Virus record (IMG/VR): IMGVR_UViG_3300010885_064105
Span: 62,001-122,362 of that record
Source of the DNA: an uncultured virus (IMG/VR IMGVR_UViG_3300010885_064105)
Lineage: Duplodnaviria; Heunggongvirae; Uroviricota; Caudoviricetes
Direction: 5' to 3' (one strand)
Length of the DNA stretch: 60,362 nucleotides
Within the stretch, counting starts at the first letter, position 1, and every line of letters begins with the position of its first letter. The notes below the pieces were generated by a model. The model saw only the letters and a list, made by a program, of their open reading frames with translations. It had not been told where the DNA came from and did not search any database. The position numbers and the translations under genes were made by a program. This document shows, in pieces, positions 1 to 55,637 of the stretch.

Positions 1-3000
1 TGGTTAGCTGCAAATTAGCATTTGGAACAGCTCCGGGAGGCACTGCTCCTCCAGTTCCATTGATTTCCTCCATTATCTTTTTTGCTTTCGCAAGAACGGT
101 ATCATCGGCATCTGAACTATAGCTATTTTTATCAAATCTTTTAGGTTCAAAAGCTATTTGATATATTAGCTCGTCTAAGACAATATCACTATCACTTTTG
201 CGATTATTATTTTCATCTAAGTTTAATTTTTGTTTTCGCCATAAGACTGAGGCTTTTTGTACTGTATCTTTTACCTTATCAAAGTTAGTATTTGCTTGGA
301 TATCTTCCAAAGCTTTTTCCCTAGACTGAGCATTAACCAACATAATATCAGAAGGATAAATATCCATTAAATTATCTATAGGCATGCCAAATTTATCCAT
401 AGGCTTCCCATCACCATTAACACCTATCCAAGAATTGCTTTCATTAGTACTTTGTGCTTTGTTTTCCATCCTATTAACATTTTTTCGTCTTAGTAATCCT
501 ACTAAACCTCCATTAGCAGAATAAATTACCCCTCCTTTGCTTTTATTGATGCTTTGTAATAGTGGTAGATTTTGTCTTGTTGCTTGAGCATTAACAACAA
601 ATTCTCCCGGAGTCAGCATCGCTGGCACTGTATCGGTACCACGAGGTTGATAGTTGACTAGTGTTCCTTGTGAAGCATATATCATGCCTCCTTTTTGTTT
701 CGCCTGTATTGGTCTAACATCTCCATCAATAACCTGTAATGATCCCATAGGTGTTGGTATACCAAACCGCGGATCTGTAGCGTATCCAACATTACCCTGA
801 TGAGCGTCTTTCCATTCGTACCCCTTTTCTCGTAAATATTTTTGCATTTCAGCACCGACATTGCCGGTTTGAAATTGTTTTTGAGCTTCTGGATCAAGCG
901 TTTGAGTTCTTTGTTGAAAGCCTACAGTATATGGTCCTATATTTTGTCTTCCTGTATATCCTGCTACGCCTGGAACATCGGAAGGTAAAGACAAAGCTTC
1001 TAAATCAGGAGACTTTAAAATATTTTGAACATCACGATTTTGTGTATATCCAAGTTTAAATACTTTTCCATTACCAGCATCAAAAACCATCGATTCTCTA
1101 CCAGATCCAACAAATTTCATAGAAGATGGATCTATACCAGCATCTCGCAGATATTTGTCTACTTCTTTTAACATTCCGGGTTTTGCATTTCTACCTGCTA
1201 ATAACGAACTGCCAGTATATCCTACCTGCCTATCTGAAAGTAATTTCTGTATATTTCCTTCAGTTACAGAATCTGGTTTCTTTGTCATAAATACTGGCAT
1301 CCGTGGATCTTCATCAGTTTGTTGCTTTACAAAAGGTTTTTTGATATACTCTAAAATTTTACCAAGAATACCTTTGGATGAGGAACTAGATGGTACAGCA
1401 GGCTGTGACACATTGGAGTTTGATGTGGTTCCTCCCAAACTAGATGATAAAGGAGCTAATTGTAGCTTTGGGTTTGATCCAGCATTAGTGGATTCGTTAC
1501 CAAAACTATCCTGATTTGATATTGGCTTAGGTCTAGACATACTGTTTGTAGACGCATTCTGAAGAGCATCTTTTGGCGACGAGACTCTGCGTCTTAAACC
1601 AGCATCAGTAGTAGCATTATCTAAAGTATCTCCAGTCCTAACCATTGGTCTAGTAACATTTGATGTTGTTAAATCATTAAGAGTATTAGGGTTAGAAGCT
1701 CCATAACCAGGAACAGGAATGTTCGGTCTTTGTCCAGTTAGTGGTGTTCGTGATCCTTTTACTCGTTGCATTAATCTAGGCTGCTGATGACCTGCTCCTC
1801 CGGTACCCGCCCAACCTTGCGCAATATTTTCGACCATTTGCCAAGCCATTCCAGCATTTTTATACCATTCAGGTAGATTTTCGTTCAAGCCGTACTCAAT
1901 TACTCTTTGTTGTCTTTCAGTTTCTGATTCTTTTCTTGTTCCAAACCAATAGGGAATGTCTTGAGGTGTCTGTTCCCAAACCTTACTATCGATAGCTCTC
2001 TGTGTGGTAGCACTAACTTTTTCTGGTGCTCCTATTGATGCTCCAGCTAATCCTGGTTTTGGCTTAACATCTGGCTTATATGGTTTATGTGGTTTTCTAA
2101 AATCTTGGGGCAAATCGAATAAAGTAGGCATTCTTTGTTTTGATGGATCAAATCCATCTTGAGCATAAACTACTCCGCCATTATTAAAAAAAGAAGGTGG
2201 GCGAGATGGGTTGATTCCTTCGATAACGTCTTGTAACCTATAGTTTTCCCCTTGAGCATTGCGCCATTGTGTAGTTAAAATCTCTTTTAGTTCTATTCCA
2301 AATAATGTATACCTAAGCTCACGATCTCTCCCGCCAAAACTTATTTCATCAAGGGTAAAACGATTAGCTGTAAATATTTGGTCTAAATAACGCTGTCTCT
2401 GCCTTATTCTTTGTTTAACTAGCTCTCTAGCAGCTATTTTTGACCTATCTGTTATATGACTGTCGATATATCTCTTACTCTCAACTATTTTTGCATCAAC
2501 GTCCAAGTCTTCATGAAACATATTATTATTAAAAATATCATACATATCTTTATGATTTATGATATCTCTAGCTGCTTTTAATCCAATACGACTTGTAAAT
2601 CTTTGTAAATCTCTATTATTTTCTAAAAAATCTCTATTATTAGGAAGACCTCCTTGTTGTAAATAAGCAATGCCTCCCTTGCTCTTATTTATGGTCTGTA
2701 ATAATGGAAGATTTGCACTAGTAGCCCGAGCATTAACTACGAATTCTCCTGGGGTCAACATTGCTGGAATAGTATCTGTTCCTTGTGGTTGATAATTTAC
2801 TAACTTCCCATTCGCAGCATAAACTATTCCCCCATGATTCAATCCATATGATGAACTTCTTGATAAATTATTTGAAAAATAATTAGGAATATTTGACAAA
2901 TAATTATCAGTAGGAATATTTTCTTGAATATCTCCTAATCCCATATCAATTTTATTATTTAATAAACTTATTTTATCGTTTAATATTTTGCCTTGTTTAT

Positions 3001-6000
3001 GATTTAATATAACGTTATTATTAATAGTATCGAGATTAGATTTAATCTTATCAGAATCTTTTACTTTACTTAAGATTTTAGGAACTAAAGATGCTACTGC
3101 TGAGATTTTAGATAGATCACTATTTGAGGAGCTATTGGATGATCCTATCAAATCTCCATTAGCAGCATATACAATTCCACCACTACTATAAGTTTTAGCT
3201 CCACTATTAATAGCATGTAGCAGTGGTAAATTTTGTTGGGTGGCCGCTCTATTGATAACAAACTCTCCGGGAGTCAACATTGCAGGAACAGTATCAGTTC
3301 CTCTGGGTTGGTAAGGGATAAGCATTCCTTTATTAGCATAAATTGGATTTTTACTAATATCTTTTAATCTATTTCTATACTCCTTCTCTTGATCTGCGGA
3401 TGGCTTTGATAAACGACCAGTTTCGCCGGAAGGTATCAGGGTGTTATACATATCAACGTGTCGAGCAAGAGTTGGATCAGGCACATCGTAATAGTCTTTA
3501 TACTGCCCACGCCATAACTTGTTATAAACATCTGGTTCAAAGTATTTCGCTTTAACGAGAAGTTGTTCTATTAAAGTATTTTTTGTTAATTCTTTTTTAG
3601 CTGATCTTTTTTTAGCGTTTGATTTTTGACTTAATGCTGCTGCTGTAGTTCTTTCTTTGTCTTCGCCTATTTCCTGAGAATTAAGCTCATTATTTAATTT
3701 ATATATTTTGTCTAAGGAGTCTTTGCTATTCGGATTATCAAACTTAGAAACTGGCTTATAGTCTTGCCATATGGTTTTAAATATGTCTTCTGGAATTCCT
3801 GACCTTTTAAGGGTCTTCTCGTAATTAATATCAGGGTTATGCAGCAGATCTTGAGGAGTAGCAAGACCTTGAGTATATGCCTTATTAACCACTCCTGGAA
3901 ATAGCAAAGAATCTTGCTTAATTTTAACCATAACATTACCAAGATTTTCCTCAACTTTGGGAGAGAGACCCCAATCACTATTATCCTTATTTAAGGAAGA
4001 CCCTATATTTGCTAAGATTGTTCTTTTATTTATCTTATCTAGCTCAGAAACCCCTGTGATTTTTCTAAGAGCATCTATCTGTGGTTGTATTACTTCTCTT
4101 TCTGAGAAGTGCGAAGCCTTAGAGAAAGAAACTGGGTATAATTCCTTAAAATCTTGTTTTAATAAATTTTTTACTGATGAGATGGTAGTTCTATCTATTT
4201 TATCATAGGCTAATTTCTGAGCGCCTCTAGGATCTCTTTGTGTTCCTAGTGTATCTCCTAGTTCTTTTGCTTCTCGATCTGTTTCTATATCAAGATATTC
4301 TAGTGGTTTACCAACCATATCTGAGAATTCATGTTGTTCGATATATCCGGTGTTGTCTTTATCAATATTTTTAAAATAGTCTTTTAGAGTTCTAGGTTTG
4401 AAATTATCTGTGGCATTTTTATCCCTAAGACCCAAGCCTTTTAATGCTGAAGAATAAGCTCCCATTAATGCGTCAAATGTGGAAGCCCCAAAAAATCTTT
4501 GCAGTTCGGGTTCTTTCTCAGGACGAAATTGATTCCATTCTTCAAAAGAGATTTTACCATCCCTATTAGTATCCCATAGTTCAATGCCACGAATAGCAGA
4601 GTTTCCACGGCCATTAGCCATCCTGGCCCTATTGGAAGTTTCTCTTCGCTCATCTGAAGTTTGCTCTCCGTTTGGTCCAGACCCAGGTATTGCAGAATTA
4701 TCTGCTGGCGTTAATGTTTTTACTTGTCCTGATCTTGATACGTTATTTTCTCTTTCTTCAAAATTTTCAGGAGTTCTGGTCTGGTCTTTATATACTAAGT
4801 TACGATCTCTTCTTGCCATATCTCCGGTAAAGTTAGTTTCTCCTTTTCTGACTGAAGTCTCAGATCCAGAAAATAATGATCTAGCTTTGATAAGATTATT
4901 AATACCTTGGATTCTAGCAGACTGAGCTAGTAGAGAATAAATAAGAGACTTGCTTTTACCCTCTTTGGTTTCTCCCTTTAATCCAGTCATAAAGGCTTCT
5001 GGACCATTCTTAATAAGGTCCAAAATAACACGCGGCCTCTCTGCATCAGCAGCATCCCATTCCTCACTAGCCTTTGGAACAGGTACCAAATCAGCTACTT
5101 TTTCAGATACTGTTTTTACATTATTTTCGAGCCAAGATACTAGATTTTCCGTATATGGGGTCTTTTTCTTAGCAAGAATATCTTTTACAACATCAGCAAC
5201 ATTAATTTCATCAAAATTCATATTGAGATGAGGAGGCATCGTGATTTGACGACCATCTTTACTTTCTGTTAACTCTTCTTGTCTTAGATTTACTCTGTTT
5301 TTTTGTTGCTGTCTCTGTTTTTTCCATTCGCTCACGGTGCTGTTTAGTAATGCTGCTGGTGACTCATAATGATTTCTATTTTTAAACTCTGGATTATTAT
5401 TTTTCCCCATAGGCTTCTGATCAGAAAGAATATCTCTTAGATTTTCTAGATCAGGAGTTAAATTTTTAACAACTCTTGCAGCAGATGATTTTGCCTGGAG
5501 CTTGGCTTTTGTTGTTGTCCATTTGACCAAATCTTTCGGCTGAAGGTCTCCTCCAACATCAGGATCTATTAATCCTAAAATTCCGTCCGTTTTTGAAAGA
5601 TGGCTAGTAAAATCAAATCCAGTAAGACGATTATCTTTATTATAATCTCTATATTTAAAACCTTTAACAAAATTATATGATAGACTTTGGAGACTCCTTA
5701 AATCATTAGCTTCTCTTATTTGAGTTAAGGTCTTATAAAAAGAAGCGTCGCTAAAAAAGCGCATACTATTATCATCGAAGCTTAAATTATTTAACGAAGT
5801 TAACCAGTCTGGCATCGTGGTTCTTAGGGTCAAATAGTCATATATACCAGAGTTAATCCTATATTTTTTATCAAGATCATCACCATTCTCAGGAGTTCTA
5901 TTTCCCGTTAATGGATTGATTGATCTATGAGAAAATTGTGCTTGGTCATCAGATAATTCAAACCTACCGTATGAAACATCATTTGGTTGTCCTCCCCTAC

Positions 6001-9000
6001 TAAGATAAGCCACTCCCCCACTACTTAATCCTTGAACTCCTCCATTATTAATAGACTTTAGTAGAGGTAAATTTTTAGCAGTTGATCTTGCGTTAACGAC
6101 AAATTCACCAGGAGTTAACATTGCCGGAACAGTATCCGTGCCCTTGGGAGCATAAGGAATTAAAGCCCCAGTAGATGCATATACTATGCCACCACTAGCT
6201 AAAGTTCTAGCAACAGTAGCTGTGGTTTTATATCCTTTTATATATCTATCTAATTTTCCAATATTTTTATGATAATTATATTCTCCTAGTATTCTTCTAT
6301 AATAAGAATATGCAGACTTATACTGTGAATTAATTCCTTTAGCTCCAGTTATTCTGGTTCTAAATGGGAATTTATCATTTTCTCTAGCCGTGTCACTAAC
6401 TTCACGTCCTGTAAATTTTTTCCCGTTATCTGGAACAGCATCTGGTCTTGTTTCTGTTATAGGAGCAAACTTTCGGCCAAATAAATCAAGTATAGAATCG
6501 TCTATTACTACAGATCTTTGAGTTCTCTTATTAGCATCTTCTGGAGTTTCGCCTTCTTTGGGCTCAGCGTCTTCATTAACTAAACTTGGTACTATATCAT
6601 TTTTATAGCCTTTACGAACAGCTTTCAAGGTATCTATAATATCTCCAAGTTTCTTATTTGAAGATTGTCCAGGTAGCGGCTTATCAAGTTTAAAGTTGAT
6701 TGTTCCAAATTTATCTAAATTAGTGATACTCATCAATTCATGCATACTCTCAATAGACTGTCTATAATTATCTATTAGATCGCCCTTTATAATATCTCCG
6801 AGAGGAATATTTTTATTTTTTCCGGTAACTAATCTAGAGTATGAATCATATGCTATTTCAGAAGATGTATATAATTTTTGACCAATATTATTAATTTGTG
6901 CGTCTAATTTAGCTTTTTCTTTGGGGTCTTTTGGTAAAGAAACTCTATTTCCACCAACTATGCCTGTGGTATCTCGCGAATCCAATGCTGTTGTTCGTTT
7001 GCCTTTTGTATAAATAGCTGATGTGGTAAATAGCTTCTTATCTGGAATTTCTGGATTCTTACCACTTTTAATTAAAGTATCTAAATATTCTTTATAACTA
7101 AGCTCATCCCAATATTTTGGTAGATTACCTACATCCTTAGGTTTCACAACTTGTGGTTTTGGTGGAGTAGTTTCAGCAGTTTTAGGTTCATCTTTATTGG
7201 GAGAAGCTGCCGCCTCTGCTTTATCTGCGACAGCAGGAACAGTCTGAGCTTCTGGCATATCATATGGTTGAGCTTTCTTTTGTTCTATTTTTCTATCTTT
7301 TATCATTCTAGCTATCATGATAGCAGTTTTTGTTAATCCATAAATAGTTTTAAATCCTGGTCTTCTAGGACGAACAGCAATATCATCTAGTTTATCTTTT
7401 AGTCGCTTAAAATCTGATGGGTCTATATCATATTTTTGTGCTATTTCATCCAGAATAGATTGTTTTTGTCTAGCAGCTGCTTCATTTAGTGGGTTTTTAC
7501 TAAGAATATCATATTCTTTATTAAAATATTCATCAAACATTTTATTAGCGTCTAGTTTACCAAAATCATCGCTAACATCTATTCCTAGTCTAGAAAAAGT
7601 TTCTTTAGCCTGCGACTGTGCAGCAATGTATATGGGTGAATTATCTGTTAGTTTTGTTAAAAGAGATGGATCAACATAGTCTGGACTAGATTTCAATAAA
7701 TCGTCAAAATGAAATTTAGCTGCTTGGTTTCGCACGTCTCCTGTTTTTTGTATGGCAGAGGCGATATCTCCGGCAGCCAATGAATCATATTTTCTTAATA
7801 TTCCTTTATTATAAGCCTCTCCAATTTTACTATTATATTCATCTCCAATAATTTTCATATTTTTTAATAAACTATCTATCTTGGCTTTGTTCTCAGCCTT
7901 CTCAGATTTTTTGCTTTTTGATTTGTTAACCTTCTTAGAGTTAGAAGCAGCTTCTTTACCTGTTGATTCAGCAAGATCATCAACTGTTTTTTCGATGGGT
8001 ATAGTATCATTACCTACTTGTATAAGTTTATTCAGCGAAGATCCGGATTTAATGGCTTCGTCTATTGCTTGTCTTGTTAATTTTTTCTTTACTAGTCCAC
8101 TTGCTGATTTTGTTATAAAATCATCAGCAAATCCACCCATTGCTATATCTGCTGCAAATCCTGTCCACTGACCTATTTCGTAAGATTCGGGATATTTTTC
8201 AATTTTTTTATTTATATCTTTTTTCCACGATGAAGGAAATCCATTGTATATCATTTCATTAATAACTTGTCCTATTTGATCTCCAACTATTGCTCCACCA
8301 ATAGTACCTCCTATTTGTGCTGCTGGAGTAAATGGCGCAGTGAGAGCAAATCCCACTCCTCCACCTGCCAAGCTTAATAATGCAGGTATAATTTGTTGTG
8401 CTACTCCATAACCAAAAGCCTTACTATTAAACGGTCCGACACCCAAGCGTAATTTATTATTATGTGCTTCGAGGTCATATGTTGCCTGACTAAAAGGATA
8501 ATTAGGATCTCCACTATAAAAGTTTTCTTCTAAAGTATTACGAGCTCCCCATTTGCTTTTTTGTTTACCAATCTTATTAGCTGCCTCATAAGTTTGAATA
8601 AATTGTATTTGTGATATCCTGTCTCCATTATTTAATTGGAACGACCCATTTAGTTTTTGTTTCTGAGGATTAATATTATTATATTTTTTCTGAGCATCAA
8701 GAGATAAATAATTATCAATATGACTATCATAGTCTGTGTTATATTCTTCTAATTCTTTCTTTGTTAATTTATTATCTGCTCCTTTCCTATAGTCTGCCAT
8801 ATATCTGAGAATACTATTTTTAGGCATCTCATTATCTTCTAAAATACTATTTTTATCAATATCTAAACTATCAAATATATTTGTATCTAAAGGCTTAAAA
8901 TGTTCTTTTACAGTTAAACCGCCACGAGCTAAATAAACAGGTCCCCCATTACTATATGCTTTAGCTCCACCATTATTAATAGCATGTAGTAGTGGCAAGT

Positions 9001-12000
9001 TACTTTGTGTTGCGGCTTTATTGATAACAAATTCACCGGGGGTCAGCATTGCTGGAACAGTATCAGTACCACGAGGCTGGAAATTGATGTGTTGACCTTC
9101 TTGAGCATATACTACGCCACCGGTAGCAAATCTTAACGGGTCTTTAGATGCATTTGGGTCTGTGACAGCTCGGGCCTCTGCATTTAAACCAGCTTCTCGT
9201 CGTTGAACAAACCACTTGTCTGTTGGTAAACTTCCATAACGAGAAGCAAAACCTAATGTAGTATGAGCAATATTACCCTTAGTATATGCATCTTGACCAT
9301 CCTGACCGCTAAAAGAATCTATAACTTGCTGAGTACGTTTAGCATTATCAGGATCAACATTCTTATCAAAAAAATAATCTTGACCTTCCCATGCTCCATT
9401 TCCACCATACCAATTATACAACGATGTCATATTCCCATATAAGAATCTTTGTGTATTAGGATCAAAATATGACATACCTACCTGATCTGTTGCATTGATC
9501 ATATCCGTAGTAAGTTTTTCAATAATGTCCTTACGAGTATCCTTACTTGGAAATTCATTATATGGATTAAATGCAATATTAACTAAATCATTATATTTTT
9601 CTGGTATGGCTTTATCTGCCGATACCAGACTTAGCGTACCATTAGCACCAACAGTTTTTATCTTGGCTCCTTCTAATTGCTGGCCTAAAATAGCCTTATA
9701 ATCCCCAGATAATGCCGTTGAAGAAATTCTACCAAATAATGATGCTCCTCCAAGAGATCTAAATAGATCTTCTGCATTCAAGTTTAATTTTTGAAACTGA
9801 CCTATCATTCGTGTATCACCACTGGCCAAACCTGTAAATGCCATAGCAGCACCAGATCCCAATGTGAATAATTCTTTTAGCTGCTGATAAATATTGGGAT
9901 TCCTTGTCATAGGAGCCAATTTGCTCAAATAGCCTCCAAAATTATTAAATATTCCACTAGTATATCCTGCTGCTTGTTGAGCTACGCCAGAATTTTTAAA
10001 TGGTTTTTGTATTATTCCACGGATACTGTTATATAGCCAATTTCCAGGTAATCCTGGAACTCTTTTTCTTCCAAAAACACCCAATGATAATCTAGCTAAA
10101 TTTTTAACAGCATCGGGTAATTTATTATCCTTAATAGTATCATCAGCTAATTGACCCTTGTCATCAATTTCTCCAACAGATTTTATTGCTGCATTGTCTC
10201 TGTCTGTAAATACTTTATCTGCTACTGTACTTAAATACTCCCCTATATTGAAAACATATGATTGTTTATTTGGTGGACTATCTTCAAATAATGGAATATT
10301 TTTTAGTATCGGATGATTGGTATGATCAATTAAAGAATCTAAATCAATACTATACTGAACACCTTTAAGGTTTTGTTTGAGTTGATCTCTTTGATTTCTG
10401 TCAATATTACCCTTAGCAAGGGTGGTGAAATCGGGAATTTTGTCAAGCTCAATATGAGACTTATCAAATATTTCATCCCCAGTTAATATTTTGTCTACAT
10501 AAGCTGTTGATTGGGCATATTTTTTAAATTGAGAATATGGACTGAGGGGATTTTTATTATTTGGAGTAATTAATAAAGCTTTATTTAAATTAGCTCCTAA
10601 ATTAAAACCATTAGGATCAGCTTTACTAGGATCTGTAGCAATTTGTGGCCCTGTATACTCTGTATACTGCATATGATACGGTAAGTCAACGTCTCCTATA
10701 GGATTAGGCAGCTTTAACTTATATGAACCAAAATCAGATACTGGCTTTGTGCTAATTCCATATTTTGTTTTTAATTGTTCAGCTTGATTATCTATAGCAG
10801 CTTGAATATCTTGAGATATTACTGATGGGTCTTCATTAGCTACCCATGGAAAAGTTTTCATTTTACCCATGTCAGCTACGTCATATATTCCAAATTCATA
10901 TCCTCTAGCCCATTTATAATCAGCGTCTGGTAAATTATTTAATCCTGCTCCTCCAACCATCAATTTTGGAAAAGTTGTCTTTATTTTATCTGCTTGTTGT
11001 TTACTGTTTAAAGATTTATCTAAAATAGGTTTATATTTACTATTTAAAACATGTAATAATGTTATATTATTTTCTTTATCTTCTGAAAGGGCACTAGGAT
11101 TAAAAAAGTTTAATTCATTGCCCGTTAATGATATTCCCTCAGCTCCACTATATAATATCTCTAATTTTTGTCTTAAATTACTAAGATTCGGATCTTCTGC
11201 CTTAAAAAGATTATTAAATACAGGATTTGTGGGGTCAGGATCAACCGATGTAAATGTCTGAGTTTGTTTAAGATCTTTAAGGTTTAATTCTTGAGTTTTA
11301 ATAATATTTTTAATATTATCTTTTTCTGTTATCCATGAATTATCTCCTGTCAATATTTTAATACGATCTTGCGCGCTAGAATCTGACATTTTAAGATCTG
11401 ATTTGATCTTGTAGTATCCCTGATCCTCATTAGATACGACGCTAACATCGGCATAATCAGATGCTAGTCTATATATTTTTAATACCTTAGCATGTTCTGT
11501 GCTCTCTTTATTCCAAGATAATGCTCCTAGAGTTTTATTTCTTGTTACAATCATACCTACTGGGAGATTAGATATAACATTGGGACTATAAAATTGATCA
11601 GAAATTAAAGATTCGGGAATATCTTTTATGTCATTGACTGCTGGCATACTTGATACTATTGTAGATGAATCTAAATCACTATTAATTAATTTTTGATTAA
11701 AACTATTTTTATATTCGATGAATTTATTTTTGGTAATATTTTTGGTGTCAAATGGCTTATCGACTACAGAGCCTAGGGGATCTAATAAGTGTGCACGAGG
11801 CCTATTAATGACACCATAGTTAAATACATCTTGATTATGTGCATTTTTTTCCACTAATATAGCTGGGGCCTCGCCTAAATATAAATTATTGATACCATCT
11901 TCGCTTTTAATCGAATCCAGGCTTGCTCTGCCACTAGAGGCAGTAGCCACGGGAGCCATAATCGTTTTAGGTTGAGCACCCCTAACAAATTTATCTGGTC

Positions 12001-15000
12001 CGGCATAGACAGATTTAACTTCTCTAAAAGCTGCTGATCTTGGGTCAATATATTTTTCTTTAGATTGAACTAGATCATCACTATTTTTTTTGTATTCTTC
12101 CTTAAAATTTTGACTAACATATCCACCAGAACTATAGTATCTAACAGCTCCACCACTACTATATTTATTACTATTAATGGCATTTAAAAGAGGCAAGTGG
12201 CTTTGAGTAGCTGCTCTATTAACCACAAATTCGCCAGGGGTTAACATTGCTGGCACAGTATCTGTACCTTGACTCTTAAAATCAATAGCACGTCCAGCAG
12301 CAGCGTATATGACACCTCCAGAGGCTTTACCCGCAGCAGGAGCAGCGCCTAGTGGTAGTTTACCATTGATTTGTTGTACTAAATTAACTAAATCTTTTAG
12401 TTCCGAACCTTCAAAATTTATCTTAACATCACTAAGAGCATTAGCCAAAGCTTTAGCTGATTGGTTTGCAATATCGCGAGCTAAATTAGAATCTAGTTGG
12501 GCCAATAAAGAATTAGCTCGTGCTTGTAAATTATTACCTTCTCTGTATTCTGCAATAGCTGCTTGAGTTGCTGGATCTAATTCTGGATTTCTAAGAGTAT
12601 TTAATATTTGCTGAAATACAGGAGATACTCCCATACCAGATTCTTGAAGCATACTCTCTAATACATTTGCCTTAATATTACCAGCCTGTTGATTATTTCC
12701 TAAAAATGGCAATATATCATTTAAGGCGCCTAGTGTTTCTTTACGCTCATTAACAAAAGCAGCTTGAGCAGCTTTCATAGCCTCCATCATACTTGCTCCA
12801 TTTTGTAAAGCCTCATAGTAGGCTCGTTGAGCACCAGTAGATCTGTTGATAGTATTTATCTGTCCATTAGCATTATTCTGCAATCTTTGAAAAGCACTAG
12901 AAAGACCATTTAATTCTTCGGGCGTACTAGTAACTAATTTTTCAATAAATGAGGCTCTTCCAGAAGATTTTTGTTGAGCTTCTTGAATTTTTTCCATAGC
13001 AGAAGCTGCAATATCGGTATTGTCAGCTAAGTATTTTAATGCATCAATATTTTCTCTTAAACCAATATTAGTATCTGATAAGTTTTTAGTGAATTTAATA
13101 AAGTCTGCTTGACCAGATAGTCCTCTTTCTCCTGCACTTCTTTGTTCAGCTTGTTGAACTACTCTGGTATTTTCTAGTTTATTTATGCTATCAAATATAT
13201 CATTAGGATTAGTAGCTCCTCCTGTTTTGGCTGATACTTTAGAGTTTACCATTGTTCTAGCATTTTCTAAGCTAATATTTTTACCCAAAGTTTTTGCCAA
13301 AGAAAGTTCAGAATCAGCAACTATATCAGTAGCTTTTCTTAGTCTTTGATTAGCAGAAATCTGTAGATCAATAGTTTTATTAATATTTTGAGTATATACA
13401 TTAAGGGCGTTTTGATAGTGTTCTAATGCTTTGATTGCTACTTCTTGTGCTCTCCTAGAACTATCAACTACCTTATTTAGCTGACCAAGTTTTTCGCTAA
13501 GCTGAGTATAATCTAGTTTTTCGTCTCCAGATTTCTTAAAGTCTTTAAGAACATTACCAACTTCTCCAGATAACTTTTCAACTAAGTCTGGAGGCAATGA
13601 CAAGTTAGCTAGTGCCTCTTTAACATCGCGACCAACAATGGATCCTAATGCTTCTTCTGTTATTCCAGGATTTTTATTAACAGATTTATTAATGGTGCTC
13701 ATTACAGTAGATTCTATCTTTTCTCCAACTCCTAATAATGAAACCATTTCTGGTGATCGTATGCCAAAAGATTCAGCAGCAACATTTCTGGAATTTGATA
13801 CTGTTTGATCAGAATATGCTCTTGGATTTTGTAAAGCGTTAATCGCAGTTAAAGCAATATTACCAACCTTGGCTTGACCTTGCAATGAATCTGATGCGAG
13901 ATCGATATCTTTGCTCATTTGTTCTAATGAGAAGCTGGCACGACCAATGCTTTGTTCCATATTTTGGAACATTCTCTCAAGAGATCTAGTATAAACATTT
14001 ATTGTATTGTCTAAAGACTTGAGTTGTTGTTGTCTTTCAATAACAGAAGCTTGTTGCCTAATGGTTTGTTCTGCATTTATAGCTATAATATTATTAATTC
14101 GTGCTTCTTTTTCAACATCACTAATGTTAGCATTATTTTTTATAGATAAAATTTCTTGTTCTACAGCAGCATTCGCCCTTGCTATAACTTCTGCTTGTTT
14201 TTTCCATGCTGGATCTTTAAATATATCTTCAACACTTGAACCGCTCTGAATCTTAGCTCCAATAAGATCAGTAGTAAGCTTAGAGGTTTCAGCAAAACTT
14301 TTAGAATTTTCTCTTGCTTTTTCAGGAATTAAAGACTGATATTCTTTACTTCGTCCTTTGTCTCCTCCACCAAAAAGATCAGTAGATCTAAAATATGCCA
14401 TTATTCCTTTCTTATCCAAAATCTCACTACGTTGAGATGCTGCTCCTTGATCAGCTGAGCCAAAAGCATCAAATAGATTAACCCAAAATGCCTTAGCAAG
14501 TTTATTATTAGCTTCTATACCAGCTTTAGCAGCTTCTCCTGCTTCTGCTAATTTAGAAGCTAACGATCTTTGGATATCTACATTCTTAATGTTAGTATTT
14601 AGTTTTTCAAATAATTGTTGACTATCACTAATAGCTGTTTCTAATTTCTTTTGCTGGAAATTTTTCTCAAATTCTATAGCAGCATTTCTGGCTTCTATAA
14701 AAGCTTGTCCAACAGAGGCCGCTAATGTAGCAAGAAGACCAAATCCTCCTAAAAGTTTAGACACTGCTGGACTAAGTCTGCTTCCTAGCATATCTTGCAA
14801 GCCGCCAACGAGCATGCCACCAGTAGCTAATCCTGTAACTCCGCCCTGAATAGCGCCCGCTGTGCTAGCATTTGAAGAGCTGGCACTAGCATTAATTTGC
14901 TGAGCAAGCAATGATCCTATTCCTTGTAGTCCAAAAGATAAGCCCAACATTCCTCCAAAATTACCTCGCTGATCACCGCCAGGAGCCTGTTGTCCCCTTT

Positions 15001-18000
15001 GTCTAGCTAATTTATTAACAATATCTTTTCTTGTACGAATTTCTTCTTCAACAGACTGGCTCATTTGTCTTTGCTGGGTTCTACTGGCAGTTGTATATGC
15101 AGTACTACTTCTTAACTGCTGTCTTAGTTGATCATCCATCTGTCTTAGTATACGAGGATCTCCCATACTTTGACGAACAAATCTTTGAGCATCATCTCCT
15201 GTTAAACCATTAGCTCTAAGATTAACTCCTGCTCTACTACTTGCTCTAGAATATGCTTGTCTATCAATAGCTCCAGCATTTTCCTGCAATCTGGTATTAA
15301 TATCTTCCTGACTCATACCTCTAGCTGCTAATCTATTTCTGGTATTTGTGCGTATTCTGTCTCTTTCTTCTTGAGCATTAGATTCTATGCTCTGTAATTG
15401 ATTTCCTGATAAGCCTCCTAAAGTACGTCTAGTTTGAATATCCTGCTGAGCTTGTCTACGAATATCTGCTAATTGATTTTCAGCCTGAGATATCTGTTCT
15501 GCACTAGCTCCGGCTAATCTGGCTCGTCGAATATCAGCTTCTGTTGCTCGTATAGCTTGTTGGTATGTTGCTTGTATGCCGCTCTGAATAATTCTAGCAG
15601 AATCACCTGATCTAACACCTAATTCTTGTAATACCGTAGCTAAATTTTCTAGTTGACCAGTAACATTATCTGTAACTCCAACTACTGATAATGCTCTAGC
15701 ATCGCTCATGCCGCTAATATTTGGTACTGCTCTAGGACTTCCTCCAAAAGCAAATCTTTGAACGGCTCCGCCCTTACTTAATCCTAAAGCTTTGGTAGCA
15801 GCTGCTCTTATAACAAATCCGCCCACAGGCAATCCTACAGGTCCTATGCTGTCGCTTGTTCCGCTACCGGGTCCCTTAAATAAACTAATTCCACCACCAG
15901 CAAATGACCTCATACCATTACGATCTGCTTGGTTCATTTCTCTTAATTTGTCATATCCTATATTTTTTGCTGTTTCTGGTGGTACAAAAGCTTCTCCATT
16001 GCTAACTAATGCTGGTACAGTATCCTGTGTGGATCCTCCTATTGCATATCCTCGCATTTTCTTGAACGCCTTTTGATCACTGCTAACCTCGTAATCTCTC
16101 AAAGTGCGTCCGTCTCTCCTTACCGCATCTGCCATTCTATTTTGAACATTTGATCGAGCAAGATCAACCCGATCCTGAACAACAGATGGTGGAGCTTTAT
16201 ATGGTTGTAGGGATGGAGGCATAGGTATTGAGCCTTCTCCATAACCACCAATTTGCCACTGTTCACCATAGCCACCAGGAGCAGGTATTTGCTTCATGAA
16301 CTGAGCTTCAGTAAAACCGGCTTTAATAATATCTTCTAGACTATACTTGAATCCTCCTCTTTGAATTAATTTAGGAGCAGGTACTAATCCAGCATCAGCA
16401 AATCTTCTAATGTTTCCACCATTTTTAAAACTTTTAACTTCAGCTTCTAGAAAATTTGGAGCACCCCAATCTGATCTCCATCCTAGTGGTCCAGTAGTAT
16501 CTAATACTCTATTGATTTTAAATCTAGAATTTCTTGGTAATAGATATTCTGCTTCCATATCATAAAGAGCACTCTTTCCTTTATTACCGGTTCTTTCTAA
16601 AACATTAGCACCCTTACCTGTTGGTCTTATGTGTAATACCCCTCCATTTGATCCAGCAAATCTTTTAGCACTATCATAGTTTATAGAAGTAGACAAAAAT
16701 GACGGAAAAGAAAAAGTCTTATTCATTAACTGAGATTTATAGTCTTTATTAGGATCTATATCTTGATCAATAATTTTTCTACGATTTTCTTTAAATCCAC
16801 TATAAAGTATTTTTGGCAAAGAATCAATCATTGAACTGTCAAGATCTTTTATCTGATTACTTTTAGTTTTGTCTGGTTTGTTTGAAATAACAGCAGAATG
16901 AAGATCTTTAGATCGCAATTGGTATTGTCTAAGACTATCTGTTGCTCCACCAGTTTCAAATTTTTGAATTATTCCACCGCTATTATAACCTCGAACTTTT
17001 AGATAATTAGTGATATTATCTTTTGCTGTTGATGGACCATTCAATGTTCTTTTGGCATCTGTTGGTATGTTTGGTTTTAGACCAAATAATGCTGCTCGTT
17101 TTCCTAATCCAAGCGGAAAGTCAATGCTCTTTCCTCCTGTTTCAGCAAATGCTGCCATTGCTCTTTTGTCTGAAAGAAGTCCTCTTAATGATTCTTGAAA
17201 TGCAAGACCAGCAGCAGTATCTTCACCCGGTTGATCTAACGGATTTCTGGCACTTTTATATCTAAATACTTTAATACCAGCTTCACCTTTAGCCTTTAGT
17301 GATTTAGATTTAAGTTCTGCTTCTTTTGTATTTTTTCCATTATCATCAACAAAAACTGATCCGGGAGGTAATTCCGCAGCTTTTAATTTTGCAATTGCAG
17401 ATTCGTTTAAATTATTACCACCAACCCCGGTAAATTGAGAACGAGGTATATTAAGATTTTGTCGTTTAAGGAAAGCTTGTAAAAGACCAACTGTGGAGGG
17501 TGGTCGCGCTGTTAGTACATTTACATATGGTGACAGCTGAGGCTTAACTAGCAATAAATCTCTTAATTTTTGACCAAGAGTGCTAAGTCTAGCTTTTTCT
17601 GATAATAATTGTCTACCTACCTGTCTCTTGTTGTTAAAAGACTGTAGATCAGGAAGATTATCAGCCCCAAATACTAATGTTTTGTCAAAGTCAGCATAAA
17701 GCGCTTTACCTAAACCTAGTTGACTAAGAATATCCGATACTAATAGTCTTTTAGCTCCTTTTTTAACAGATTTTCTAAAATCTTTACCATAAGCATCTAG
17801 ATCATCAATACCTATGCCAGCCTTATCCATTAATTTTTTACGAGGAACACCACCCATCACCTGAACAGTTGTGATGTTTTTAAGTTCTCCTTTATCTCCA
17901 ACAACCATATCAGTTGGCTTAAATGGAGAGCCGTACAAACCAGCAATACCAAATAGTAATCCTGCTGCTTGTTTCTGATTAGTAATTCCGAGACGTTGAT

Positions 18001-21000
18001 CTACTTCACCGTTTATTCTTCTGGTATAAGCTTTTAGAATCTCATCTTTTTTGCGTTGAATATCTGGTGTTGTATTTCGTTTACCAAGAATAGTCCTCAT
18101 CATTCCAACATCCATACCCTCTACTCTAACGGGGCCGGTCTGTCCAGTAGTAAGGCCTGTTATAATTTGAGAAGCTGTTAATTTAGCAGCATCGGACTCT
18201 GTTATTTTTTTAAACCGTTCTTTTTTTGTTCTTCTGACCATCTCTCCGGCCATGAATCGCTGAATAGATCCACCAGAAGCTAGTTGTTGAACATTAAGAC
18301 TAGCTTTTGATCTCATTAAAGAACTTCCGGGTCGAGCAGAACTTCGCTCTTCTTTTGCGCTTAAGATTTTGAATTTAGAGTTTGGTGGTAATATAAATTC
18401 TTTTTCTAAATCATAATCTGTACTAACTCGTTTATTAGTATTAATACCCTTTTTCTTGGGGTTGGTCAAAATACTCAAAAGTCCTTGACGAGCAAATTCC
18501 ATTGCTATAGAGCTATCTAAACTAGTAGATAAAAATCCAGGTAATGTAAATGATTTGCCAACCGATTTTGGTAGCTTATCGCCAACTTGATTTTTAATCA
18601 GATTGAGTCTATTTTCTCCAATACCAGAATATAATTGTTTTGGTAATTTATCTGTGGTTTGTTTTTTTAAATCTTTAACATTTTTTTGTTCTTCTTTAGT
18701 TAATGGAGTTCCAAGCATTAGACTTCTATTAAGTTTCATAGAAGTTGCTTTATATGTTGATATAGCGTCAGTACTTCCACCAATACCGAATTTTTGTATA
18801 GATCCACCATTATTACGTTCTAAACCAAGTTTATCAATTTTTAATAAACTCTTCTGAGCTCTTTCTTCTCTTCCTCTTTTTTGGCTTTCACTTGAGTTTG
18901 GAGTAAAGATTTTGTTTTTTAATCCAGGTCCCATTTCATATACAATTGTTGGACCCAATTGAATATTGTCGGGTTTCTGCTTCCTGGTTAAAGGAGATAT
19001 TTTTTCGTTATTACGACGCAATAAGTTATATCTTAATCGTTTGTTTAAAATAAATGCATCAGGAACTTGCTCGTAAGTAAATTTAGCTTCAACTGGAGGT
19101 AATCCGGGAGTCTTTGGTATAAAATCTAAAGGATAGTTGTTTTTGGGTGCTTTTTCATATTGTTTTCCCTCAAGAATATGTTGAAATAAAAACTCCTCAA
19201 AAGCTACGCCTTGAGCAGCATAGAACTCTCTACTCTTATCTTTGGCTGCTCTACTATTAATATAGCGTCTAAAATTCGCATTGTTTGCAACAGCTTCTTT
19301 TATTTCTGATTCCCCAATAACTCTTCTCTCTATATCGGAATTAACATTATCTTTGAGCTGAAAACCTCTAAGCATTTTCGGTGATTGTCTGTTTAATTTA
19401 TTTTTTCTTCCTGTTTTTTGTTTGCTGGTCTTGCTTGTTTCATTCTCGTAATAATCTATATAGTCTGAGATTCTATTTCCACTTTCTCCTGGAGACAGTG
19501 ATTTTAAAGCTGCAACCCCACCCTGATAATAATTTTTGGGGAATATAGATCCTCCACGACTCCTATTCAAAGAATGTAAATTACCAACTCCTATGCTTTG
19601 TGCTGCTGGCTTGCTCATCACAAACTCACCAGGAGTTAATTTTGCCGATACAGTATCACCATTTCCATATCCTGGTACTAATCCACCACTAGCAAAAGCA
19701 TATATACGACCACCTTCATTAGCTCTTCTGGCTCCTCCACCATTTCCTCTGATTCCTTGACTAAAACCACCTATATATTGAGTGGCCGCAGTGATTCCTT
19801 TAAATGCAGCAAACAGAGTTAATAATGGTAAAACTCCCTTAGTGGCATCAGCCACCTTTATTAAAGCGCTGGCTAAATCTAAACCAACTTTTACAATATT
19901 TTGAAAACTACTAGTATCTCCAATGCTACGAATAAGAGCAAGAAATTCTTCTCTCACTTTCTGAATCTGAATAGCTAAAGCTAATTGTCCTTTTGCCGCG
20001 TCGGTTGCTAATGATCCTTGGCCCTGTTGAGCAACCTTTAATGCGTCTTGAGCAGTTGCGAACTGTTGAATAAGTGGTAGCACCTTGCCGATCTGACGGA
20101 AGCCGCCCAATTCTTCAACTATCTGTGAGAATTTAAGATCTCGTGGATCTAATCTGCTTAGTCCTTCACTAAGTCTTTGAACCGCAATATAGGGACCTAC
20201 GAATTTACCTTCTAAATCAGTTAATGTAACTCCAAATTCTTGTAATGCTTCGATAGTTCCTGCTCTTTGAATTCTAGTAAAAATAGTTCTTAAACCAGTA
20301 GCAATAGTTTCTGCACTTTCACGAGTTGTAGCTCGGATACTGGTAAATACAGCAATAAATTCATTTAATGCTTCTGTGCCTGTGCTTACTCCTCTACTAG
20401 CAGCAGCAAACACACCACCAGTACGCTGAATAGCAGTAATAATATCACTAGCTTCAACAGCAAACTTAGCAGACACAGCATTAACACTACCTAGTGCCAT
20501 TTCTAATTGATTTGCTCCTATACCAAACTGTCTCATTAAAGCAATAGATCCTTCTACAGTTTGATTCATATCATCAAATGATGGAGCTAATGCACTAAGA
20601 GCCAAAGCTTTGAGCGCCGTAGCAGTATCTTTAGCCGTTAAACCAGCCTGTGCAAGAGTTACTGTGGTAGTTGTTAGCTCATTAGAAGAAACACCAAGTT
20701 TAGTAGATAAATCTGTAATAGTATTTGCCACATCAGCTAATTTATTTCTTGAATCACCAGTTACCTGAGATATGCGAGTCATTTGCAAATCAAAATCTAT
20801 AAAAGATTTAACACCCTGACTAACAGCATTTGTTAATCCATATATAACACTTGTAACAGTTGTAATAGCTGAAAATCTTCTAAATGCTAAGCCGGATTGA
20901 CGACCAAACTCTACCATTTCATTGGATGCTAGAGTAATGCTATTTCTAGTATTATTCGCAGCCCTGCTAACATTTCCAACATTTATAGCAGTATTATTAA

Positions 21001-25093: not shown

Positions 25094-26056
25094 TTATAAA
25101 ATAACTTCTGCGGTTAATCTTAATGTACACCAATATAAATTTTTATTTACGGTTTCCATGTCCAAAAGTGAAATTTCTTTGAAAAAGCATTTATTCCAGA
25201 AAAAATTAGAATCATTAACTAAATTAGTATAGTTTTTACCATTAATATTTAAGCTTCCTTTATGATCTAATGAGTTAACTCCACTTTTGACCACTTTTGA
25301 GATATCATATAATTTAATAACTTTTTCTTTTTGAAATCTAATAATATCAGTAATTTTAATTTGATCTTTATAGTTTTCAGCAAAAACATGCAATAAAATA
25401 TCTTGATCAACAGCAAAATCATGTGCTCCAATTTGCCATGGTTTTGAATAGCTTCTAGCGATTGGCTCTATTATTATGCATGGCATTTGAACTCTGTGAT
25501 TGGATGATATCTGGTAGTCTCCTTTATTCTTAAGATTAATGTCTGGAGAAGGAGAGAAGGATCTGCTCTGTAGTTCTGTCAGAAACTCGTTGGAGCCTCC
25601 TTTTAAAACTTGGCACCAGCGGTATGAATATTCTAATTTGACTGTGGTCGAGGATGCTAGGGGCTTATTGAATATTATCTGACCTAATGGGTAGTTAATA
25701 TTATAGCCAATTGACCCTGATCCTGTTGGGGCTGGATAAAATGTACTTGAGACCATAACGCCAGAAATTTGAGTCGGAGATGTTCCATTATAAGATACTC
25801 CGGTTTCCCAAACCCACTCTTTTTTGGGAGATTGCCATACTTGACCGGAAGAATATCCTGGTTGATCACTACTCTTAAGATCACTAAAATTTCCTCCAAA
25901 TAATCCACTATTTGGTATATGAACATTGATAAATCCTCCAATATTCAGAAATCCCCAGTCTAAAAAAGTCTTTAAATTTTCTTCTAGTTGATTGATTAAC
26001 TGATGATCATTTAGAGATTCTATATTATTAAATTTTGTATAATCTTCACAACTCAT
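25094..26056 (-). CDS. Putative tail terminator / completion protein
   Basis: C-terminal MPCIIIEP...VDQDILLHVFAENYKDQIKITDII pattern; immediately upstream of the tube gene. Confidence 0.5.
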   Translation of the reverse strand: MSCEDYTKFNNIESLNDHQLINQLEENLKTFLDWGFLNIGGFINVHIPNSGLFGGNFSDLKSSDQPGYSSGQVWQSPKKEWVWETGVSYNGTSPTQISGVMVSSTFYPAPTGSGSIGYNINYPLGQIIFNKPLASSTTVKLEYSYRWCQVLKGGSNEFLTELQSRSFSPSPDINLKNKGDYQISSNHRVQMPCIIIEPIARSYSKPWQIGAHDFAVDQDILLHVFAENYKDQIKITDIIRFQKEKVIKLYDISKVVKSGVNSLDHKGSLNINGKNYTNLVNDSNFFWNKCFFKEISLLDMETVNKNLYWCTLRLTAEVIL

Positions 26057-26709
26057 ATATTATTCTCTATTTCTTTTTGTATAAGATCTGGTATGATAAT
26101 ATCTAATCTAGTTAGTGCTCGTGATATCCAGTTATTATTCTTGGTCCCAGCAAATTCTGGTGGTACTCTCCAGTTTTCTTTAGAGCTTACCATGATAGCC
26201 ATTCCTGTTCTTGAATTTGCATTTGGTCCCATTTGTACTTTATAATTTTTAATTATAATTTGTCCACCATATAGTAGTAGCCACTCTAACCATGGTAATA
26301 GCGCCCCACTCTTTGAGTCTTTTACTACTGAGCCTGCTAAATTTAATACATCACTATAATCATCTTTTATCATATTAATACTAAAACCACCTTTCAGACC
26401 ATTACCAGAGATAACTATTGGAATAGTTTCTATATTAATATTATTAGCCCAAGCATCAACTACGGAATTAACTGAATTAGCAGCATCTGGTATTCCAAAT
26501 TCATATCTCAATTTACCATTAACAAGAGATCCATACTCAGGCTCTGCCATAATAGCGTTTTTAACATGAGTTGGGATAGTATTCCTTAAGTTATTGAGAG
26601 CTTTACCGAAGGCGTTATTCAATATTTCTTTTATTGTATATAATATCATATTAGATATTTCACTATCTGATTCTAATAATTTTAAATTTATATTCATGCT
26701 CTTGACCAC
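26053..26709 (-). CDS. Putative neck / tail completion protein
   Basis: 218 aa; LPWLEWLL and GTKNNNWISRAL resemble HK97 gp10-like C-terminal patterns; synteny. True start may be the MNINL Met. Confidence 0.45.
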   Translation of the reverse strand: MVKSMNINLKLLESDSEISNMILYTIKEILNNAFGKALNNLRNTIPTHVKNAIMAEPEYGSLVNGKLRYEFGIPDAANSVNSVVDAWANNINIETIPIVISGNGLKGGFSINMIKDDYSDVLNLAGSVVKDSKSGALLPWLEWLLLYGGQIIIKNYKVQMGPNANSRTGMAIMVSSKENWRVPPEFAGTKNNNWISRALTRLDIIIPDLIQKEIENNI

Positions 26710-27221
26710 ATAGATATTATATATTTGTTATTCCCTAATCCACACGGAGTTGGATCCCCTGCCAAAGAATAGGTATAGCTAGTATAAGACTGTATATTAG
26801 TATCCATAGTCATATATTGGGCATTCCTAATTTTAGGCAATAACTCAATTTTACATAATGTTTGAACCATGCCATCTTGAATCTTAACAGCTTTAGAATC
26901 CCAATTTAACCAATATTTACTATCAAAAATTACTGCTAAATATATTATTTCTGATTTAGACTTTTCAATTTTTCCATATCCATTGCAAATTGAGCAAATG
27001 CTATTCTCTGGAAAAGGAGCCGGTCCAGTTGAGTTATAAATATTTAATGACCTATTATTAATAGGATCAAATAAACAGTTATTACAAAAAGAATCATTAG
27101 GAGTATCATAAAAAACAGAACATGGTACCGTTAAAGAGTTGTCTGCTAATATAGCATCAATAGCTTGATTATATAAATTTTTAAAATCAGCATTAATAAT
27201 ATTACTAAATATATTAGTCAT
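26694..27221 (-). CDS. Putative head closure / neck protein with CxxC pairs
   Basis: CNNC and CSICNGYG Zn-knuckle-like motifs; position in the neck module. Confidence 0.5.
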   Translation of the reverse strand: MTNIFSNIINADFKNLYNQAIDAILADNSLTVPCSVFYDTPNDSFCNNCLFDPINNRSLNIYNSTGPAPFPENSICSICNGYGKIEKSKSEIIYLAVIFDSKYWLNWDSKAVKIQDGMVQTLCKIELLPKIRNAQYMTMDTNIQSYTSYTYSLAGDPTPCGLGNNKYIISMWSRA

Positions 27222-27234
27222 TTTTACTCCATAT

Positions 27235-50215: not shown

Positions 50216-50216
50216 A

Positions 50217-51344: not shown

Positions 51345-51347
51345 GAT

Positions 51348-55400: not shown

Positions 55401-55637
55401 ATCACTATTCTGAGGATTAGCTATAGTACCAAGAGAAGGTAAAGATAAATTATTAAATTGTCCACTATTTGCTATAATTAATCCACTAATATTAGTATTA
55501 CCAATAATATCTAGTTGACCACTTGGTGTATTAGTATTAATGCCTACTTTATTATCTGTAGAAATAAATATGGTCTCTTTAGTGCCAGACGCGCTAATAG
55601 ATTGACCTAATTGAGCATTATTATAATTTATTGTCAT
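52488..55637 (-). CDS. Collagen-like fibre with an embedded 7-repeat beta-propeller
   Basis: Four (G-X-Q)n blocks; seven W..[VI][AT]YGNG.FV repeats with S.DG.TW Asp-box-like motifs; N-terminal [16 protein letters not shown]-terminal VTHNLNT. Confidence 0.85.

Follow-up and report, generated by a model that had tools for sequence, protein, structure and literature searches.

A repeated junction module in a giant, probably cassette-built phage tape measure protein as a candidate processing site

We describe here a giant tape measure protein (TMP) encoded in a 60,362-nucleotide (nt) stretch of DNA from an uncultured tailed phage, the window of this analysis (bases 62001-122362 of the 122,362-bp IMG/VR record IMGVR_UViG_3300010885_064105). 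A single minus-strand open reading frame (ORF), spanning 2-21514 of the window and still open at its left edge, houses all of the repeated modules and short spacers considered below; in the full record it comprises 23,385 nt and encodes 7,794 amino acids (aa). TMPs are usually seen as rulers, sometimes with a wall-degrading domain. The present protein is very probably a mosaic TMP built of cassettes with a universal joint module. An N-terminal TMP core and a ruler-like backbone would be followed by a string of exchangeable cassettes and by a conserved C-terminal tail piece, with the module at every junction. That the joints are processing sites is the mechanism that we prefer, albeit tentatively, and the explanation as a whole, architecture together with processing, is likewise put forward with reserve.

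Results

The eight long modules and five short GG-containing spacers picked out in a first-pass annotation of the window were all recovered in place, on the minus strand, which the annotation had not named (Table 1). Two further modules past the window edge bring the number in the whole protein to ten. Since the profile that defines the module coordinates was built on the copies themselves, the independent E-values of 7e-24 to 9e-39 obtained by searching the full protein with it are circular; independent support comes from profile matches in other representative proteins and from a complete, 161.5-kb record of the same phage. The module is a unit of about 75 aa, in which a GG-hydrophobic-aromatic strand (GG-x-[IV]-Y-A) is followed, about 12 residues on, by a PA..GEFV core with a short helix (GTDTVPAMLTPGEFVVN..AT..NLPLL..IN) and then by a second GG strand (GG-x-x-Y...GG). 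About 17 positions per unit are invariant or near-invariant, and the core is nearly constant across the copies and the aligned relatives; its 15 residues are identical or near-identical in six of the in-window copies, while the two N-proximal copies have diverged.

The first-pass annotation had described a grammar of two tiers, long modules and short spacers. Both classes of element exist, but they do not form separate tiers, since a long module is itself a GG element, a core and another GG element. Two of the spacers (aa 1506-1524 and 6442-6459) weakly match the module profile over a portion at its trailing end, and from these sequences the two tiers may be read as one GG element, with or without the core. 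Stand-alone GG elements beyond the original five occur at aa 1898, 1915 and 7306. A general pattern for the element matches the protein 22 times, whereas 1000 shuffles gave 0.72 matches on average and 5 at most. A stricter pattern matches seven times, compared with 0.34, and not once in the other ORFs of at least 150 aa in the genome (31,803 residues). Indeed, a search for other proteins with the same tag came up empty: in six-frame searches all ten module matches in the 122-kb record, and all ten in the 161.5-kb record, fall in the TMP frame. The placing of the spacers at domain boundaries is borne out, as four of them bracket two ADP-ribosyltransferase (ART)-like domains and the ends of alignments to relatives are enriched near the elements. 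GG elements flank ART1, ART2, each module core and each cassette on both sides.

That the protein is a genuine TMP is indicated by its core, which is matched by TIGR01760 over aa 224-535 (NCBIfam E 1e-23) and by eight TMP PHROGs in addition to the Pfam domain listed in Table 1. Beyond the core, the two ARTs and an EF-hand pair, nothing in the remainder of the 7,794 aa is recognised by Pfam, and ART1 has no match among PDB sequences. Segments S0 and S2 are ruler-like in composition, with 1.2-1.8% Pro, whereas the other segments, with 4.5-6.8% Pro and 6-9% aromatics, are globular-like. Hydrophobic stretches occur at aa 560-578, 2250-2273 and 4374-4396. A kinase reading of aa 6701-6931, suggested by a neighbour in the Atlas language-model map (PF18762 Kinase-PolyVal on 80% of members, 0.92), was confirmed neither by Pfam (E<=1) nor by PDB sequences and is a lead only. 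Cysteine is nearly absent, with one residue in 7,794, and at most two occur in 148 of the 150 best family members; such avoidance would fit a protein that stays unfolded or crosses an oxidising compartment. At the extreme N-terminus, aa 20-125 (window ~21140-21457) appear by eye to contain three or four tandem repeats of ~30 aa, of the type ..DIRRQ[IL]G...A[ND]I...

A profile of the eight in-window copies, searched against 1.84 billion representative proteins, matched 16,014 of them at E<=0.001; 796 reach E<=1e-30, which by our estimate takes more than one module copy. No Pfam or NCBIfam model exists for the module. The family figures that follow cover the best 150 of the 16,014 matches, with copy numbers taken from a local profile. 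These proteins are 935-7,872 aa long (129 of at least 3,000 aa and four of at least 7,000 aa) and carry 3-10 copies, the median density being one per 810 aa; copy number tracks length (r = 0.66), and the present protein has the most copies and is second in length. In 113 of the 150 the first module falls within aa 400-600, and in 129 the last one ends 50-200 aa before the C-terminus, with the spacing between modules being bimodal (~200-400 and ~1000-1300 aa). When the proteins were cut at their modules, 879 segments were obtained that fall into 224 single-linkage families, 153 of them singletons. Family 0 (the TMP core) is found in 123 of the 150 proteins; families 1 (S2) and 2 occur in 121 and 109, respectively, and family 3, the C-terminal one, in 73. 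Written as strings of families, the present protein reads 0-2-1-4-13-22-37-38-23-10-3, and the representatives P0002 and P0003 read 0-2-1-4-71-37-23-39-10-3 and 0-2-1-4-22-9-30-10-3, respectively. Conserved ends thus enclose a variable middle, and one and the same cassette occupies different ordinal positions. All 12 related IMG/VR loci (about nine distinct) carry the gene as an uninterrupted ORF, 3,704 to >6,391 aa in length.

Cultured phages carry the module at low copy, as the first-pass annotation had stated for a related motif in TMPs. A tblastn survey with one module against 50,697 records of cultured phages found it in 77, at one place each. In those listed records that carry annotation it always lies under the tape measure gene (three have none, and some RefSeq twins say endolysin). 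A lambda-type version of the module occurs in 994 such records, at 996 places. The single copy ends 60-70 aa before the C-terminus in three Gram-negative or cyanobacterial phages, and lies 280-450 aa from the end in two actinophages and in the Brevundimonas jumbo phage Kikimora. Backbone segment S2 has no match in the 50,697 cultured phage records, nor in bacterial or archaeal genome contigs, and we therefore regard the lineage as uncultured and infer no host.

Comparison with relatives often places the borders of exchanged segments at the elements. Identity with P0002 is 95% up to aa 928, is lost over ART1, is back at aa 1080 on a short element and ends at aa 4199 within module 4. Across 148 relatives, 570 of the 932 internal ends of alignments of at least 200 aa fall within 15 aa of an element, the elements making up 17.9% of the protein, although these matches are not independent, conserved modules lengthen alignments, and by endpoint clusters the count is only 38 of 145. 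A relative that lacks S4 (L012) has a module whose left part matches our module 4 and whose right part matches our module 5, with the switch of informative sites inside the core. A systematic search for such chimeras gave 109 event classes, of which 104 were evaluated and 98 were too diverged to read; the six clean chimeras all switch inside a module, as the first-pass annotation had suggested for cargo swaps, a result that is partly a consequence of how a cassette is defined. Since cassette indels leave a hybrid module behind, crossovers fall inside modules.

The nucleotide sequences of the copies tell a different story about why the module is maintained. Where residues are identical among the eight well-conserved copies, third codon positions agree at a rate of 0.50, compared with 0.49 expected from codon usage; exact nucleotide runs between copies are 21 nt at most (median 9 nt), and the copies are ~29% different in nucleotides. 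Because synonymous sites are at random expectation, it is the peptide that selection keeps, and the module is not a DNA homology patch. The copies are old and held by strong purifying selection on the peptide. Thus, of the role as recombination handles that had been suggested for the modules, the junctions inside the module with a hybrid left behind stand, whereas upkeep as a DNA homology patch does not: cassette exchange uses the modules, yet this is not why they are conserved, and a handle role is only a by-product.

Among solved structures, the sole match to the module is the TMP of phage Douge (8zdo), with two weak copies (E 5e-4), where just residues 1658-1699 are modelled; a stretch homologous to the module is covered by no solved structure. 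A neighbour in the Atlas map with Tape_meas_lam_C on 18% of members (0.81), taken as a lead only, pointed to the TMP of phage lambda. With hhalign the module aligns to residues 732-784 of the 853 of lambda gpH (probability 78%, E 1.8e-5, 51 columns), a moderate match that lies outside Pfam Tape_meas_lam_C (627-701). The two share the leading ATGG, the PA..GEFV core, the L..L helix and the trailing ATGGYV, and a Gly-rich hydrophobic stretch stands just upstream, as at module 1; the lambda element ends 69 aa before the C-terminus, and the last module of the present protein 109 aa. By contrast, gpH has one copy instead of ten (only the last of the ten is at the canonical C-proximal place), has no cargo cassettes, and has Lys-Tyr where the present core has Asp-Thr. 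The Ur-lambda paper gives gpH* as approximately residues 1-710, with the cut site and catalyst unknown and residues ~690-817 unresolved. From computed fragment masses, a C-terminal fragment of 13-14.6 kDa would put the cut at 710-730, within the Gly-rich run that directly precedes the module. During injection, the lambda TMP is reported to get to the inner-membrane permease.

Phage T5 offers a second comparison. Published work on its TMP, pb2, places the cut that yields pb2* and pb2C after R1127 and describes a muralytic motif in pb2C. The cut runs between FVPR and AEGGMMYPG, so that GGMMY begins at the third residue past it, and no other strict GG-hydrophobic-hydrophobic-Y/F element occurs in pb2, which is 1,219 residues long. 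Like the cassettes envisaged here, a C-terminal functional piece is freed from the TMP just past a hydrophobic stretch; unlike them, there is a single cut and a single freed domain, and no string of cassettes.

Enzymes that might cut were sought in both records of the phage. No protease was seen in the ORFs of the 122-kb record, but the extra 39 kb of the longer one holds three: a subtilase (E 4e-54) next to a trypsin-like protein (E 5.5e-21), and a ClpP-like head-maturation protease. The subtilase (Peptidase_S8) and trypsin-like genes lie at ~145,000-146,700 of the longer record (G001:C1; L024:14529-16192) and are also neighbours in relatives G003 and G006; such an adjacent pair is unusual for a phage. 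In three other relatives' records (G007-G009; L017-L019) there is only a sub-threshold trypsin-like match (16.5 bits), in an identical open frame of 1,165 aa. Among the best 150 family members, 50 contain HExxH, compared with two of 150 after shuffling, in conserved helix-like contexts and mostly in the segment between modules 1 and 2; 30 of the 63 occurrences sit in the slot of the present protein's ARTs. The HExxH segments of the relatives are possible embedded zincin peptidase cassettes. A resemblance of the module to the nucleophile strand of S24/S26 peptidases (LexA / signal peptidase) was rejected: none of eight copies matches Peptidase_S24/S26 at E<=10, and there is no conserved Lys partner.

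Table 1. Features of the tape measure gene, with residues of the encoded protein and coordinates in the window
Feature	Residues (aa)	Window	Strand	Remarks
Giant tape measure gene	1-7171 of 7,794 in window	2..21514	-	identical to representative P0001
TMP core, PhageMin_Tail (PF10145)	265-469	20108..20722	-	Pfam E 1.4e-21
Module 1	591-673	19496..19744	-	diverged type; right after hydrophobic stretch aa 560-578
Short GG element NNGGSIQKFGIGG	901-913	18776..18814	-	left bracket of ART1; P0002 alignment breaks at aa 928
ART-like domain 1 (ART1)	914-1080	18275..18775	-	PF03496 (ADPrib_exo_Tox) E 4.7e-8, over cut-off; phrog_3895
Short GG element ASGGSIQRFMAG	1079-1090	18245..18280	-	right bracket of ART1; P0002 alignment restarts at aa 1080
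Short GG element NSGGIIQKFETGG	1511-1523	16946..16984	-	left bracket of ART2; weak partial module-profile match
ART-like domain 2 (ART2)	1524-1696	16427..16945	-	PF03496 E 8.2e-9
Short GG element KNGGNIRRFADAG	1697-1709	16388..16426	-	right bracket of ART2
Module 2	1802-1891	15842..16111	-	diverged type
Short GG element SKGGAVQRFAFGG	1913-1925	15740..15778	-	pattern match
Backbone segment S2		12344..15739	-	ruler-like, conserved; low Pro, few aromatics; hydrophobic aa 2250-2273
Module 3	3058-3134	12113..12343	-	profile
Module 4	4129-4207	8894..9130	-	end of collinear backbone common to relatives
Cassette S4	4208-5098	6221..8893	-	missing from P0003, P0006 and L012; hydrophobic aa 4374-4396
Module 5	5099-5182	5969..6220	-	profile
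EF-hand pair in cassette S5	5648-5734	4313..4573	-	PF00036 E 1.9e-9; PF13202 E 6.8e-8
Module 6	6052-6126	3137..3361	-	profile
Module 7	6220-6296	2627..2857	-	profile
Short GG element FFNNGGVVYAQDG	6444-6457	2144..2185	-	weak partial module-profile match
Cassette part S7c	6701-6931	722..1414	-	kinase-like by language-model neighbour only
Module 8	6932-7010	485..721	-	profile
Modules 9 and 10	7323-7398 and 7608-7685	outside window	-	profile

Discussion

Why a tape measure protein should carry ten copies of one peptide module can be explained in several ways. In the scenario that we tentatively favour, the modules and GG elements would be joints at which a polyprotein-like TMP is processed, or at least hinged. 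At infection the cargo cassettes would exit the tail together with the TMP and become separated from the ruler and from each other, by the same processing that yields gpH* in lambda and pb2* in T5. The cutting agent might be a serine protease of the phage, the embedded HExxH cassettes of relatives, or a host enzyme. We count in favour of processing that a GG element stands on both flanks of each ART, as cleavage sites do in polyproteins. Indirect support is lent by the similarity of the module to the gpH region beside the lambda cut, by the GGMMY element two residues past the T5 cut and by the three protease genes of the longer record; the HExxH enrichment among relatives and the contact of the lambda TMP with the permease point the same way. 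The first-pass annotation had likewise proposed that the GG elements are protease sites or packaging/ejection signals that release cargo.

Several observations weigh against processing at the joints. The conserved unit, with about 17 fixed positions in ~75 aa, is far above what a protease site needs and thus suggests binding or folding. AlphaFold2 gave no usable fold for the module, the mean predicted local distance difference test (pLDDT) score being 51.2 with 8 sequences and 60.1 with 54; pLDDT reaches 73-78 only over the core and the short helix, and in these models the module looks like a binding or processing motif, not an autonomous domain. None of the 12 related loci shows a break of the gene at a module. 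As to the cutting agent, the present TMP has no HExxH, no Pfam peptidase and a single Cys, 13 HExxH-bearing relatives have no Pfam peptidase at E<=0.5, and the subtilase and trypsin-like genes are over the cut-off together in just three of the nine relatives' records searched, the pair being absent from one relative record that is 92% complete. A conserved self-cleaving nucleophile is unlikely, since lambda does not share the Asp-Thr found in the core. The comparisons with known cuts have their own limits: the lambda cut, some 10-20 residues upstream of the module, is placed only to within ~20 residues; the T5 pattern, which one in 20,000 shuffles puts at the cut, was picked after the data had been seen; and pb2 shows no significant match to the whole module (hhalign probability 0.6%).

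It is possible, though we hold it to be less than probable, that the modules are uncleaved structural joints that become ordered only on binding a conserved partner (the tube lumen, an assembly chaperone or sister chains) in a TMP that stays intact. Joints of this kind would hold a very long TMP and its cargo in register and allow tube polymerisation to proceed over cassettes that are not rulers. The length of the conserved unit and its many invariant positions argue for such a role, and the restriction of AlphaFold2 confidence to core and helix fits a binding motif. Also in keeping with it are the position of the copy 60-70 aa before the C-terminus in TMPs of Gram-negative phages, near the start of the tube, the absence of any split at modules in all 12 loci and the increase of copy number with length. 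However, the copy lies much farther from the end in the actinophages and Kikimora, and structural joints leave both the ART-bracketing GG elements and the coincidences with the lambda and T5 cuts unexplained. The processing and structural-joint views are compatible, as a docking module can carry a cut site.

It is unlikely that the whole protein is simply a length ruler, with the cargo as filler, for an exceptionally long tail. At ~1.5 angstrom per residue, a fully helical protein of this size would measure more than 1 micrometre. The matches of the core domain do identify a genuine TMP, and Gordonia phages are reported to pair very long TMP genes (9 kbp) with 500-nm tails. Against this, only S0 and S2 have a ruler-like composition, enzyme and EF-hand domains are present, and the cassettes vary greatly among close relatives. 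Just as improbable, or slightly more so, is that the modules persist chiefly because they serve as recombination handles, as homology patches for cassette exchange. The hybrid modules at indels, the alignment ends that fall at elements, the varying order of cassettes and a gene for a UvsX-like recombinase in the phage genome all speak for it. Yet synonymous identity is at the level set by codon usage and exact runs are short, while copies and aligned relatives hardly vary in the amino-acid sequence of the core; the element is conserved even in single-copy TMPs, where it can be of no use for exchanging cassettes, and the finding that switches lie inside modules follows in part from the definition of a cassette. 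An artefact of assembly or gene calling, in which repeats chained or collapsed unrelated pieces, might be feared given the metagenomic source and the repeated content, but is very improbable, as the same frame (7,794/7,795 codons) recurs in the longer record of the phage (161,520 bp, CheckV completeness 100%), ten further loci and 149 representatives have the same architecture, and module copies ~29% apart in nucleotides are too diverged to confuse an assembler.

Among known systems, the polyvalent proteins (Iyer et al. 2017, PMC5512222) resemble the present TMP in combining multiple effector-type domains, including ARTs, in one giant polypeptide, and the HExxH enrichment among its relatives, together with the kinase-like lead towards Kinase-PolyVal, adds to the likeness. 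Polyvalent proteins are thought to enter the host along with the DNA, and their embedded metallopeptidases have been tied to self-processing (PMC5512222); the main text of that paper does not mention tape measure proteins at all, nor is a repeated junction module part of the system. The present protein differs further in that no embedded metallopeptidase or other peptidase was found in it by Pfam or by HExxH. A parallel in organisation is provided by MARTX-type toxins, which have conserved ends and a variable run of effectors that is exchanged by recombination, the domains being released by cleavage in between. MARTX toxins are secreted by bacteria, contain a cysteine protease domain of their own and have short linker sites; they are not known to be homologous to the present TMP, which has a single Cys. 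Long or enzyme-bearing TMPs are known as such: TMP genes of Gordonia phages, at 9 kbp, were called among the largest in 2016, and the present gene of 23.4 kb is ~2.6 times longer. It is the ten junction modules and the system of cassettes that set the present protein apart. While TMPs and polyvalent proteins are kinds already known, the large multi-module class is apparently undescribed; no description of giant multi-module TMPs was found in the literature searched, and a search for the peptide strings of the module gave no relevant paper among the matches listed.

If the cassettes are delivered cargo, tailed phages would inject enzymes ahead of their DNA, and in a modular manner, with most of the cargo being of unrecognised function. 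Such a delivery route would be comparable in its logic to multi-effector toxins. The module and GG element adjoin the cut region of lambda and the mapped cut of T5, which makes them a candidate for the determinant of gpH cleavage. An appealing if doubtful generalisation is that giant modular TMPs are phage-injected effector polyproteins, loaded into the tail tube as a string of swappable cassettes that are released at the joints by the processing known from lambda and T5, the module being the determinant of TMP cleavage and the delivery route a widespread and hitherto unrecognised one.

Records and neighbouring genes

The 122-kb record (G000) is a truncated copy of the 161.5-kb genome (G001), and the ~39 kb that it lacks include genes for a sigma factor, a clamp loader and rIIA/rIIB besides that of the head protease. 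Among the ORFs scanned in either record, PHROGs pointed to no major capsid protein, portal or terminase, and no tube or sheath gene was identified in scans of the TMP neighbourhood. The genes directly flanking the TMP gene on both sides match nothing, while its wider surroundings give tail-fibre, collagen-like and baseplate-like PHROG matches. Upstream of the TMP gene lies a second giant ORF of 4,126 aa (window 33708-46088, minus strand) with a weak tail-fibre PHROG match (E 7.7e-4). A collagen-like tail fibre protein of 1,049 aa is encoded at 52488-55637, also on the minus strand, with very strong PHROG matches (E 3e-88), and its gene is followed by three paralogous ORFs of ~375 aa (49085-52484) that weakly match glycosyltransferase PHROGs. 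Outside the window, at 25659-30069 of the 122-kb record (G000:C1; L008:6659-11069), the DNA polymerase is apparently split into two ORFs, one matching the N-terminal and the other the C-terminal part of a single PHROG, with an ORF resembling an exonuclease subunit in between; several HNH or homing endonuclease genes are present in the replication arm.

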